Origin: Eledone cirrhosa
Lineage: Eukaryota
Reading direction: 5' to 3'
Assembly: GCA_964016885.1 (NCBI GenBank)
Contig: OZ024740.1
Span: 407,588,001 to 407,652,000, forward strand
DNA: 64,000 bases
The notes under the pieces were generated by a model that had not been told where the DNA came from, ran no database searches, and was given only the letters and a program-made list of their open reading frames with translations. This document shows positions 565-44,200 of the stretch, one piece after another (the stretch's first letter is position 1; each line of letters opens with the position of its first letter). The translations under genes were made by a program, and so were the position numbers.

Positions 565-653
565 CCACCATATATATTTTCCCCTCGAGCTCCCAGATAC
601 AGGAAAACTATCTATTGGGCAATTTTCACAATGGATAACAACAGATTTTGTTA

Positions 654-714
654 ATCATCATCATCATCATCATCATCAATTAATGTCTATCTTCCACGCT
701 AGCATGGGTTAGAC
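654..714 (-). mobile_element. RTE 3'-terminal tail with (TGA)n fused to the U1 copy
   Basis: GTCTAACCCATGCTAGCGTGGAAGATAGACATTAATTGA(TGA)n matches the RTE ends at about 51251-51312 and 53282-53344. Confidence 0.9.
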
Positions 715-719
715 TTTTT

Positions 720-881
720 AGGTGAGCGCGAATGCAGACCCCACACTTAGGAATAGTGCACCCGAGTCGCCCACATTTGGGGCAATCACAAAGGTCAACC
801 CAACCAGAGTGCAATGGAAGGGCCTCACTCTGGGAGAACCACCTAGCTGATCATGGTTAACCCCTGTGCCAGGTTAAATGT
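720..881 (-). pseudogene. U1: Full-length U1 snRNA-derived retrocopy (head of a U1-RTE chimera)
   Basis: Minus strand: ACATTTAACCTGGCACAGGGG..CCATGATCA..GGTGGTTCTCCCAG..GAGGC..TCCATTGCACTCTGG..CCCCAAATGTGGG..ACTCG..GGGGTCTGCATTCGCGCTCACCT, colinear with U1 over about 162 nt; 5' end and Sm site are degenerate. Confidence 0.88.
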
Positions 882-16862: not shown

Positions 16863-17096
16863 AAATAATAATAGTTGTTCATGTCAAATTAAATAATTCA
16901 ATTTTGTTCCTTGGAATGATCTACTGTTGTTAAATACGTGATATATCAATATAACTCATAATTATATATGCAATATTATTAAGAATCCATGCAGCCGATA
17001 TTGCAAATGAATTAAGGAGGAGAAATAAGCTTAAAACTTCAAAGAATTAGAGATAAAAATGGTTAATGTTTTGATTTATAATGGTAAGATACTTAC

Positions 17097-17228
17097 TGAA
17101 TTTGTGTCAGATCCATCAAGTTGTTGAGTTCGATAAATTCCAATAGGAATCTCACAAGTTGTTGAGCAAAGTTTCTGGTACAGTCGTCCATATGTTCTTA
17201 TCCATAAATCATCTTTAGCTATCTTCAT
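17097..17228 (-). CDS. Slo2: Slo2 exon ([44 protein letters not shown])
   Basis: 132 nt, TAG/GTAAGT. Confidence 0.96.
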
Positions 17229-38200: not shown

Positions 38201-41200
38201 GATAGTTCCCCAACTCCAAGTGAAAACATCATGATGCACCATAGTTTCACTGGTGACAGAAATTTCTTCTGAAACAACCCATGGGACATTACTAAGGGAT
38301 CTTCTCTACCCTATGCTGTCTCCATTTCATCACCAGCCACTTTACGTGTGATGAATGAGTACTGAATACCGAAGTAGAGTTTCATAATATTCTATATTGG
38401 AGGCACATGGCTTAGTGGTTAGAGCATTGGCCTTGCAATCGAAAGGTTGTGAGTTCAATTCTCAGACCGGGTGATGTGTTGTTTCCTTGAGCAAGACACT
38501 TTATTTCACAATGCTCCAGTTTACTCAGCTGTAGAAATGAGATGATAGGGACTGGAGTCCCAGTCCCGATCATTCCACTGCAAAGTGGTCGTGGAGGTGC
38601 CACATTTACTTTACATAATTGTCTCTACTTTTGGCACAAGGCCAGCAATTACTGGTACTTTATTTTATCGACCCCATAAGGATGAAAGGCAACAAAGAAA
38701 TCATAGTTGAAAAATATAGAGCACAATATGTTATTCTAGTTTAATGAATTTTTATTGAAAATCTGTATATTATATATAAATAGACAATATTAAAATGCCC
38801 TAAGATAAAGTATTATTTTTCATCATAATATAATCACTTGCTAAGGAAACAATTCTCTAGACATTTCATATATAATTGCTTTTCTGTCTATAATAGAAGG
38901 AAGACAAAAGAAAATGATTTACAATTTTTTTTTCTTGCTGGGAATAACTGCACCATAAAATATCTGATTTCATCAGTGTTAACATTTAATGTTCATAGAA
39001 ATAAAAAAAAAACAAAAAAAAAAACACAAAACACAATTGCGAAACTCTGTAAGATATGTTAAGCAACTATTTTACAATAATTTATTTTCCATTAATGCAG
39101 TGTTATGTTTCTATCTTTTAATCAGAAAGAAAAATGTTGGACATGTGATTAATTTCTGCAAGTCTCAAACTTCCCAATGTCACTACATAATTAGTGTTCA
39201 GTTGTGGTTGTTACTATACTAATATTTTTTTAAAATCTAGGTGAAAAACTAAAAGGATACCTAAAAAAAGGTGTAGTCAATTTAAACAACCGTAGTACTT
39301 GACTGGTATTTATTTTATTGTCCCTAACAGAATTGACATTGGTAGGATTTGAACTCAGAAAGTAAAGAAACATTACTAAATATAGAAAGGCATTTGGACT
39401 GGTGCTTTATTGATTTTGCCATCCACCACAGTTCAATAATAATAATTATGATAATCATTATAATTTCTAAATTTAGTACAAAGAATTACACAATTGATAC
39501 TTAATGAAGGGTAAAACTAACACTGACATGATTAAAACTCAGAATATAATTTAGTTTCACTATCCACCATTTCTGCCACTCATACACATCATAAAAAAAT
39601 TACTCTAGTAAAAACTGCCTAAGAGCATTTCTAACAGTTAATTCTTATACTAATGACACTAGGCAACAAATTAAAAAAAAGTTCAAATGTTCAAACAAAG
39701 ATGTAATGAATAAATTGCTTGTACACAAACCTTGTAAATACCAAACAAAAAAATGTAGCACATAAGATCATTAACTGCTGTCCGAGAGCTGATTGAGATT
39801 TCTGCATTACACGGTGGAGATCATTCTATAATCAAGAAGAAAAACAATAGAGATTAAAATGTTTTTTTTTTTAATAATTGCTGACTAATTTATTAGAGGC
39901 ACTAAAATAAATTAATGTCAAACGGTATTTTTCTCAAAAAATTATATATATATATATATATCTCAGAACTTGTCAACCCTTATTAAATGGTCAGTCGATT
40001 CTACGAAAATGTAATGTATTATAGAACATTTTCTTCTTGTCTCCTTAAAACCTCGTTCATTCATCCATATATATCTACAATCGTTGCTATTCTTGCTTTA
40101 ATTTAATCTTCTCCACGCTGGTTCTAAATATTCTCCCTCATTGCTAACTACCCCATATCCCTCCCGCCCGCCCCCACTCTCCACCTTTACTATTTGGACC
40201 AATCACAAGTCAACGGCCTATGCTATCACCACTGGCTGCTTTTCGATATGATGGATGGACTAAGGAATTTCTGGAGAGTCTGAAGAATCTGGACACTCGA
40301 TGACAATGCCAAAGATAACGACAAATTCACCTCATGCTGCCGGACGAAGGGGCAAGGCCCCCCCCTCTTTGTTTCGGCCGCGGATGGCCAACATAACCCC
40401 AAACTCATTCCCCTCACCCCTCCCTGTGCCCCATCCTCCAAACACAATCCAAAACTTCAGAGTTGGTACCATGAACGTAGGCACCTTAAAAGGCCGCTCT
40501 AACGAGGTTGTAGAAATGCTTGAACGTAAGGAGGTTGATGTTTGCTGTATCCAAGAGACCAGGTGGAGGGGCAGGTCTGCTAGATTCATTGTGGGTAAAA
40601 AACGTTGCTATAAGCTTTTCTGGGTGGGGAATGGCAATGGGATAGGTGGGGTAGGAATCATGTTAGCAGAAAAGTGGGTGGATAAGATAATAGATGTAAA
40701 TAGAGTGAATGACAGAATAATTAAAATAAGACTTGTTCTAAACAGAACTACTGTGACAGTAATATCTGCATACGCGCCCCAATCCGGACTGCCTGGCGCT
40801 ATAAAAGACAGATTCTATGAGACACTGATGCTCACTACCTCCCAAATAACCGACAGTGACTATATAATTATTGGTGGCGACCTAAATGGTCACGTTGGAC
40901 AACATTGTGACGGCTATGACGGAATCCACGGAGGCTATGGGTTTGGTACTAGAAACGAGGAAGGCTCCAGAATCCTGGAATTCTATGATGCGAACAACCT
41001 AACTGTCTGTAACACTAACTTAAAAAAACGAGACAATCACTTGATCACCTACAGATCAGGAGAACATACCAGCCAGGTAGATTATATCCTTACCAGAAGA
41101 CGTGACAGAGTCTCTGTTGTAAACACTAAATCCCTTCCCCATGAAGAATGCACCTCCCAACATAGACTGATAATTAGCGACCTCATAGTCAGGACAAGAT

Positions 41201-44200
41201 GTACTAGATAGCAGAAGAGGACTATCCTCAGGAGAAAAATATGGAAGCTAAAGGATCCTACAGCCAGAAATAAATTTCAAAGCATGTTACTTGATGCTTT
41301 CGACAGTAAGGAAGAGCAATTAGAGTCGTACAAGGTAGAGGAACAGTGGGAATTCCTGAAAGCAAACCTGCTGATGGCGGCAGACGAAGTCTGTGGCTGG
41401 AGCAGGCCTGTAGGCAGGAGGAGAGTAACATGGTGGTGGAACAGTAAGGTGGAGGGGTCAATCAAGGCCAAAAAGCAGGCTTGGAAAGCATGGCGGGATG
41501 GGGGAAGTAGAGAAGACTATAAGGTGGCCAGGAGGGAAGCTAGGAGACAAGTGTACTTCGCAAGAAGGGAAGCAGAGGAAAGAAAGTTCAAGCATGTTCT
41601 ACAACGCGAGGACCAAAAACGTGAGGTGTTCAGGATTGCTAGGCAATGTGTCAAGGAAAACCGTGATATTGTCGGGGTGAAGTGTGTACTTAACAATGAT
41701 GGCGTACTTGCCATCACTGACGCTGATAAGAAGGTAGCTTGGAAGTGTCACTACGAAAGGCTACTAAATGAGGAGAATAAATGGGAGAAAGACAGTCTCC
41801 CCCACATCGATCCAATAGAGGGACCAGCAGTGTTAGTCGAAGGTAGTATAATAAGTAAGGCAATCAAAGATATGAAGACGGGTAAGGCGGCTGGGCCTTC
41901 GGAAATAGTTGCTGAGATGCTGAAAGCCTCCGGTACGGTGGGACACACCATGGTCACCCGGATAGTAAACCAAGTCATACAGAATGGGGTTGTTCCGAAG
42001 GACTGGCGTAGCAGCATCATCGTTAACTGTTACAAGGGTAAAGGAGACGCCCTAGATAGGAGTAACTATAGAGGCATTAAATTAATCGACCAGGTCATGA
42101 AGGTCACGGAAAAAGTAATAGCGCAACTAATCAGAGAGAGAATTGATCTAGATGAAATGCAGTTCGGGTTTGTGTCAGGCAAAAGTACCACAGACGCTCT
42201 TTTCATTGTACGACAACTACAGGAGAAGTACCTAGCTAAAAGTAAACCCCTATACTTAGCTTTTGTCGACTTGGAGAAAGCCTTCGACAGAGTCCCCCGT
42301 TCCATTATCTGGTGGGCTCTTAAAAAACTAGGTGTTGACGAATGGCTTGTGAGAGCTATACAAGCCATGTATAAAGAAACAGTCAGCAAGGTTAGAATTA
42401 ACAACGGATATAGTGAAGAGTTTAGCGTAAAAGTTGGTGTCCATCAGGGCTCTGTTCTTAGCCCCCTACTATTTATTATTGCTCTTCAGGCTATAACAGA
42501 GGAGTTCAAGACCGGCTGCCCATGGGAACTCCTATACGCAGATGATCTAACGCTCATAGCTGAATCAATGGCCGAGCTAGAGAAGAAATTCCAAACATGG
42601 AAGCACGGCCTAGAATCAAAAGGCCTTAAAATTAACCTGGCTAAGACTAAAGTTCTAGTTTGTAGGAAAGAAAATAAGGCACCGGTCCCCTCCGGGAAAT
42701 GGCCATGCTCAGTGTGTAGGAAAGGCGTAGGTAGAAACTCCATTTTATGTCCCAAATGCAAAGTATGGGTGCATAAAAGATGTAGTGGGATCACAGGTAA
42801 GCTAACTAAGAACACAGATTTTACATGTGGCCGGTGCTCTGGTGCAATAAGTAGCAGCAAGTGCCCACAAAATACTAGCTCATTCAACTGCGCAGAGGGC
42901 TCTATAGAAATAGTGGACAGCTTCCGTTACCTGGGTGACAAAATCAGCAGTGGGGGAGGGTGCTCTGAAAGTACAGTAGCTAGAGTCAGAACTGGATGGA
43001 AAAAGTTCAGAGAGCTTATACCACTATTAGCCGCTAAAGGGTTCTCCCTAAAAGTGAAAGGCAGGTTGTATGATGCCTGCATACGAACAGCAATGTTGCA
43101 TGGCAGTGAGACCTGGGCATTGTGTGCAGAGGATATACGCAGACTAGAGAGGAACGAAGCTTGCATGCTCCGCTGGATGTGCAATAGTAATATACGTGAA
43201 CGGCAAAGCATAAACGAACTAAGGAAAAAATTAGAAATAAGAGGGATCAGATGTTGTTTACTCGAGAGAAGGCTACGTTGGTATGGTCACGTGATGCGCA
43301 TGAAAGACGACAGCTGTATAACAAAGTGCAGGGCAATAAAGATAGATGGTAGCCACAGAGTAGGCGCAGACCCAGGAAAACCTGGGACGAGCTGATAAAT
43401 TCCGACCTCACACACTTACACCTCTCCAAGACAATGTCACTGGACCGAGACCTTTGGTGGTACTCAATAACAGAGAAGACCTGCCTTACCTAAATACAAA
43501 GTAAAACCTACTACAGTCAGTAGGCATCTTTAACAAAATACACCCCCGTCCCACCCCATCCACACCGCCCCCTTCAATGCAAAGTTATGTTGGTGCCACA
43601 ACATCCAGGCCGAAACAAACGAGATCGTGTAGGTGTCACGACAAAAAAACACACAGTCCACGCTGTAATGTGACCGTGTAGGCAACACGGTAAAAACCTC
43701 CCAGTCCCACACTGTAAATGTGGTTGGTGTTAGGAAGGGCATCCAGCTGTAGAAAACACGCCAGACAGTCCACGCTGTAATGTGGCCGTGTAGGCAACAC
43801 AGTAAAAACCTCCCAGCCCCACACTGTAAATGTGGTTGGTGTTAGGAAGGGCATCCAGCTGTAGAAAACCCGCCAGACAGTCCTATGCGAGCAAGACAAC
43901 CACTCTTGCCTCAAGTGGGAAAACTCCCGTCCAAACCCATGCAAGCGTGGAACAGGGACGTTAAACGATGATGATGATGATGATGATGATGATGATATAT
44001 ATATACACACACATGTATGGACCCATAACTTCTGGTGGAGTTGTATGGACCTCATAATGACCTTTAGGGGAGAGGGTGAACTCAGAGAGCCAGAAGGAAT
44101 TCCACAAACATTCTATTTAATGTTGTAAAACTCTGCCAATTTGCCACCTATACACACACAGATATGTATTGACACACACACACACACACACACACACAAA

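Follow-up and report, generated by a model that had tools for sequence, protein, structure and literature searches.

The window, a 64,000-nucleotide (64-kb) stretch of the Eledone cirrhosa genome, carries on its minus strand a copy of U1 snRNA fused to the 3' end of a LINE. In all likelihood this is a single-copy fusion of U1 nt 7-160 to an RTE-like LINE, probably produced in one target-primed reverse-transcription event and probably inert. The fusion is found once in the genome, its tail is shared with LINEs of the window, and its U1 part has decayed mostly at CpG positions.

Structure of the U1 copy

The U1-like sequence reported on the minus strand in the first-pass annotation was confirmed with the Rfam U1 covariance model, which matched positions 717-881 (minus strand) and scored 98.9 bits (cut-off 69.5, E 1.2e-23). 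U1 is the sole RNA family detected by Rfam within the 64-kb window. The U1 genes of the host however align to positions 874-721 (minus strand) only, with 94-96% identity. This stretch (721..874) corresponds to nt 7-160 of the 164-nt host U1, that is 154 nt instead of the full length of about 162 nt first reported, and is 96.1% identical to the gene type at C2:27.9 Mb and on C11. The U1A-binding loop, SL3 and SL4 are present as described, and the loop heptamer ATTGCAC (808..814) is intact according to both Rfam and the sequence. The U1 part stops 4 nt before the natural 3' end (nt 160 of 164), and the 3 nt CCG next to the U1 3' end are missing in the fusion copy.

At the other end U1 nt 1-6 are absent and the 5' splice-site-pairing end (nt 1-11) is therefore incomplete. 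Since these nucleotides are missing, the ACATTTA found there is best read as flank and not as the altered splice-site-binding end of the earlier description. A mutated U1 5' end was rejected; it needs three substitutions and one insertion in 7 nt, compared to one change in 136 non-CpG positions elsewhere. Six changes are found across U1 nt 7-160, five at the 18 CpG positions and one at the 136 others (Fisher p 7e-5), and at non-CpG sites the copy is < 1% from a U1 gene. This pattern looks like neutral CpG-type decay of a fairly young copy. Minimum-energy folding was uninformative, as the chimera gave a z value of -0.62 and a genuine U1 gene one of -0.42.

The Sm site was at first considered to be replaced. 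However, all 30 U1 gene loci fetched from the host (L032-L061; C2, C11 and C1128; up to 133 bits) read CTATTTCTAAG in the Sm region, and the window copy (746..756) differs from these genes by a single T>C at 751. A mutated Sm site was thus rejected, the host genes carrying the same non-consensus form. The Rfam U1 consensus in this region is AAUUUgUGG, and no consensus-type U1 was seen among the 30 loci fetched of the best 42 scored Rfam hits. The U2 genes of the host read GATTTTTAG. Because retrocopies carry the non-consensus Sm region, U1 of that form was transcribed. A literature search found no paper on the U1 snRNA Sm site in molluscs. Another species, referred to here as organism B, appears to share the host form.

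Judged from its sequence the window copy is not a functional U1, as the first-pass annotation had concluded, but the Sm site is not the reason. The real grounds are the missing nt 1-6 and the absence of gene flanks: when the copy was compared by eye with 29 other U1 loci, neither the host-type upstream promoter block nor the 3' box was seen next to it.

The host U1 genes include tandem arrays with a period of ~2,674 bp at C2:180.97-181.00 Mb, C2:169.42-169.46 Mb and C1128, the last of which may be an unplaced portion of the same U1 array. Three positions, including one in the SL1 loop, distinguish array-type U1 from the C2:27.9 Mb / C11 type. A U2 array is located on C3 and a U6 array on C19.

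The LINE-derived tail and its donor

The LINE-derived 3' part of the fusion is 60-66 nt long, lies on the same strand and is joined directly to U1. Reading away from U1, it consists of a junction T followed by an A5 run (715..720, the A5 at 719-715), a 36-nt 3'-terminal segment of an RTE-like LINE recognized by its motif matches in the window (679..714) and containing a short hairpin (708-694), and the (TGA)8 terminal repeat of the LINE (655..678). This succession of A5, terminal stem and repeat is the one originally described. The A5 was then regarded as a linker distinct from the tail. However, L074 and L084, which among the 29 other tail loci are closest to the fusion (2 mismatches in 45 nt), carry AAAAAC at the same place, immediately 5' of GTCTAA, and L084 has LINE coding sequence upstream. 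The A-run therefore probably came along with the LINE tail, as part of the donor subfamily.

The stem motif of the tail has nine matches in the window compared to none in 100 shuffles. Each of the nine tail copies is either the 3' end of a LINE or a short 3' fragment, and inspection by eye showed no tRNA head on any of them. The earlier statement that LINEs and SINEs of the window share this tail was confirmed for the LINEs only.

A near-full LINE with the same tail at 40264..43990 (plus strand) serves as a model for the mobilizing family. Its single ORF encodes both an AP endonuclease and a reverse transcriptase and contains one in-frame stop (41209-41211); its 3' end is a short tandem repeat. 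No other ORF of >= 120 aa was found upstream on the LINE strand. The putative donor is classed as RTE-like by this architecture alone. In the LINE at 40264..43990 the RT domain is followed by a PHD-like zinc-finger insert. At L155 (C1:407.52-407.53 Mb), long frames resemble, by eye, a different LINE with ORF1 and ORF2. A link of the fusion to the LINE fragment at 7-357 was rejected; the fragment is separate, ~300 bp distant, and begins mid-ORF.

Insertion site and mechanism

The fusion is flanked by candidate target-site duplications TTAAC at 873..877 (5' side) and 650..654 (3' side), both on the minus strand. The last two bases of the 5' copy also match U1 nt 7-8, a microhomology. The candidate duplication is only 5 bp long and lies in AT-rich DNA, and another register is possible, in which the tail is preceded by TAA and followed by TAAC, as would agree with two successive insertions. 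In the four sequencing runs compared, of nine listed, no empty allele or orthologous site was seen; the organism B contigs fell short of the flanks, and reads of the RAD-seq run X7 hardly reached the locus.

In the proposed mechanism, the LINE protein would nick the target site and prime on its own (TGA)n tail. The reverse transcriptase would copy ~60 nt of the LINE 3' end and then jump to an abundant RNA, U1, at its 3' end. Reverse transcription would halt 6-8 nt short of the U1 cap (nt 7-9), and the insert would be sealed by the 2-nt microhomology and the 5-bp duplication. A near-complete U1 3' end, within 4 nt of the natural one, is what is expected of a jump to an RNA 3' end.

Alternatively, the site could at first have received a tailless U1 retrocopy, to whose 3' end a tail-only LINE fragment was added by a second insertion; the TAA/TAAC around the tail could then be a second small duplication. 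Both ingredients are present in the genome. Tailless U1 fragments occur at L062, L063, L065, L066 and L071, and tail-only insertions of ~50 nt occur frequently: in a sample chosen for A-rich upstream sequence, 15 of the 29 tail loci other than the fusion had no upstream 3'-UTR match. Yet, barring a targeted site, a U1 copy and a tail would become neighbors by chance with a probability of ~0.8%, as calculated from 17 other tails in 132 kb, 12 loci, a single strand and a 10-nt window. The window copy extends to nt 160, while the breakpoint of most tailless copies is internal to U1, and the U1 and tail parts show similar slight CpG-type decay. Two events are thus unlikely, and a single target-primed event is the preferred reading.

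Copy number in the genome

The first-pass annotation left two options, a one-off RTE template-switch chimera or a member of a U1-headed SINE family mobilized by the RTE-like LINE. Copy number separates them. A 23-mer spanning the junction has one exact match in the 2,996 Mb assembly. Gene arrays took up the hits scored in the DNA similarity search (the best 40 of 341 candidates) and in the Rfam search (42), and copies were therefore counted with pattern probes. Four probes placed along U1, allowing up to 2 or 3 mismatches, matched 48, 46, 45 and 52 places, which combine into 12 dispersed loci, the window copy among them, and 43 gene copies located in five clusters or single genes. The 45 places matched by the U1 3'-end probe (up to 2 mismatches) are all gene clusters or the C11 gene, except for the window copy and one tailless copy. 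No LINE tail was found within 600 nt of the 11 other dispersed U1 loci; the window copy alone has one. The CpG-changed SL3 probe form of the window recurs only in one unrelated tailless copy, and the assembly probes found no second copy with shared private changes or extensions, the sign of a master copy.

The first three probes detect a full-length copy with a probability of 0.90 at 10% divergence and 0.27 at 20%, assuming no indels; hence only a much older family could escape detection. Reads gave the same result. A 94-base contig from run X1, which may be the assembly's own sample and is not independent, spans the junction with no differences at a depth of 10, compared to 9.5 and 10.5 in the flanks.

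With a small-RNA head and a LINE tail, the fusion has the anatomy of a SINE, and the hairpin and repeat for recognition by the LINE are intact. But the exact junction, the four U1 probes and the read depth all give one copy, and the fusion has no body sequence and no promoter. A SINEU-like family is ruled out for this assembly by copy number, and membership in one is scarcely credible as an account of the window copy. The single junction copy supports the one-off chimera. Lacking an upstream snRNA promoter, it would have no autonomous transcription and so could not seed a family.

Genomic context

Slo2/KCNT exons lie on the minus strand, the same strand as the fusion, as noted in the first-pass annotation. 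Upstream of the insertion, the last coding exon assigned to Slo2/KCNT is at 17079..17228 (minus strand; KCNT1 983-1018, E 3e-14), and a frame ~11.9 kb past the window start has a weak match to KCNT1 1109-1135 (E 0.26). Both hits are to KCNT1, and since these matches fall on either side of it the fusion is probably intronic in Slo2 and in the sense orientation. The fusion would be no more than a passenger in the Slo2 pre-mRNA, and its changes have the look of neutral decay; because the U1A heptamer is intact, U1A binding on that transcript is at most conceivable.

Other snRNA chimeras in the genome

A U6 3'-end probe matched 167 places. Among the 100 matches listed, 54 that lie outside the C19 array and the two top-scoring genes were examined. 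Three of these 54 dispersed loci (L158, L194 and L116) have U6 joined to the 3' UTR of the LINE family seen in the window fusion, each at its own position, with the LINE stem 126, 194 and 264 nt from the junction. L116 was counted here by its downstream match to the LINE UTR; automatic classification had given "other". Seven loci have U6 joined to a tRNA-head SINE and five to three other partner types, which were defined from these loci themselves. The remaining 21 are unclassified, and some may be genes or tailless copies. One U6 locus, L143, shows a 13-bp duplication enclosing both parts.

The largest group, 18 of 54 (including L134, L135, L141 and L156), joins U6 to a 65-nt tail ending in (AAAGAGT)n, in 17 cases at nearly the same start. 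These may represent chimeras formed at a hot spot, or else a multi-source family headed by U6. One master family was rejected, the heads being derived from at least two U6 paralogs and the junctions varying by a few bases; no parent element was recovered.

A recurrent breakpoint was also found in U1. In three U1 fragments (L069, L196 and L198) the U1 sequence breaks off at nt 71, just past the U1A loop, and gives way to the 5' end of a full tRNA-head SINE; two of them have 9-10 bp flanking repeats by eye. Two probes for this junction returned only the three known loci. Their SINE bodies diverge from one another by 18-20% and, against seven background copies, have no diagnostic column in common, and each U1 head differs at 2 of 50 nt from a different U1 paralog. 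A family was therefore rejected, there being three loci only with diverged bodies and heads from different paralogs, and the three look like independent events at one breakpoint. Together, the U6/LINE, U6/SINE and U1/SINE fusions show that snRNA chimeras are routine in this genome. The window copy is the sole U1 case found with this LINE.

These recurrent breakpoints, U1 nt 71 in three loci and the near-constant start of the 65-nt tail in 17 of 18 U6 fusions, would suit a mechanism in which the RNAs are first ligated by an RtcB-type enzyme and the fused RNA is then reverse-transcribed. Ligation by RtcB has been named as a route for LINE-1 chimeras in the accessible text of PMC11838501. The product is the same as that of template switching except for the joining step, and the two are indistinguishable by sequence. 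However, the substrate of RtcB must carry a 3' or cyclic phosphate, and intact U1 has neither. A jump would also agree with the A-rich junction, which might base-pair with the U1 3' flank. Prior ligation is thus highly improbable for the window fusion, and a template jump during target-primed reverse transcription remains preferred.

Head-to-head inverted pairs were also observed, involving a partial U1 (L197) and U6 3' ends (L157 and L178; C1:148.857 Mb and C4:274.669 Mb). They are possibly fold-back artefacts or twin-priming products.

Relation to known snRNA-headed retroposons

Chimeric retrocopies U6/L2, U6/Mon-1 (platypus) and U6/RTEX-2 (Anolis) were described by Doucet (2015; PMC4476161), the available portion of which reports mostly 5'-truncated snRNAs, short LINE pieces and 1-9 bp duplications, each copy having arisen independently. 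Like these, the window fusion consists of an snRNA followed on the same strand by a short piece of LINE 3' end that closes with a simple repeat, and it has a small candidate duplication; on this comparison it fits the same kind as the snRNA/LINE chimeras of platypus and Anolis. Unlike them, its head is U1, a pol II snRNA, instead of U6, and its host is an invertebrate, that survey having covered vertebrates as far as the same portion of the paper goes. In humans, U1/Alu and U2/Alu template-switch chimeras are reported in the consulted part of Kojima (2015; PMC4494074), with one U1 copy. The window fusion resembles the human U1/Alu in being a rare one-off U1-headed chimera, but its partner is an RTE-like LINE tail and not an L1-moved Alu.

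The SINEU elements of crocodilians form hundreds to more than a thousand near-full copies with a shared structure, according to the same part of PMC4494074. They have a target preference for Mariner-N4 and Tx1-Mar as the likely partner; for SINEU-1 no LINE sharing its 3' end is given there. The window fusion and SINEU both have a U1-derived 5' part and are retroposed units without an internal promoter. The window fusion however has one copy and a 3' end from a common LINE, which is Kojima's class of independent chimeras (PMC4494074), and its tail derives from a (TGA)n-ending endonuclease-RT LINE, not Tx1-Mar. SINEU is kept apart from independent chimeras also in the text seen of PMC5786205.

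The excerpted text of a paper on bivalve and gastropod SINEs (PMC4758252) mentions snRNA heads only for crocodilians, and that of a report of RTE-clade LINEs in octopus (PMC9115989) makes no mention of snRNA. Nothing relevant on a cephalopod or mollusc U1 SINE was found in the literature, and no report of a U1 chimera with an RTE-like partner in an invertebrate was found in the literature outside subscription papers and Repbase.

Two sequencing runs of organism B (X4 and X5, two samples of one study) were compared with window positions 721-838 and returned 1008 and 820 contigs, nearly all of them U1 nt 43-160 and mostly 80-95% alike. At nt 43, 131 contigs of X4 and 138 of X5 continue into a common AT-rich flank that is not U1. 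Beyond nt 160, 44 contigs of X4 and 48 of X5 have a common flank similar to the 3' flank of the host genes. This looks like a many-copy, 5'-truncated U1-derived repeat. No similar repeat of U1 nt 43-160 was seen in the Eledone cirrhosa assembly with the U1 probe.

Significance

The fusion extends the snRNA/LINE chimeras to U1 and to an RTE-like partner in an invertebrate, which is of modest value; the locus itself is an ordinary and probably dead retrocopy. A broader reading, speculative and rather doubtful at present, is that retroposons with snRNA heads are actively generated in this lineage. Among its fixed-breakpoint U1 and U6 fusions (U1 nt 71/tRNA-SINE and U6/65-nt tail), the window copy would then be a never-amplified proto-SINE, and the nt 43-160 unit of organism B, amplified to at least hundreds of copies, would be an undescribed family outside crocodilians. 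The recurrent breakpoints and the organism B repeat merit more attention than the window fusion.
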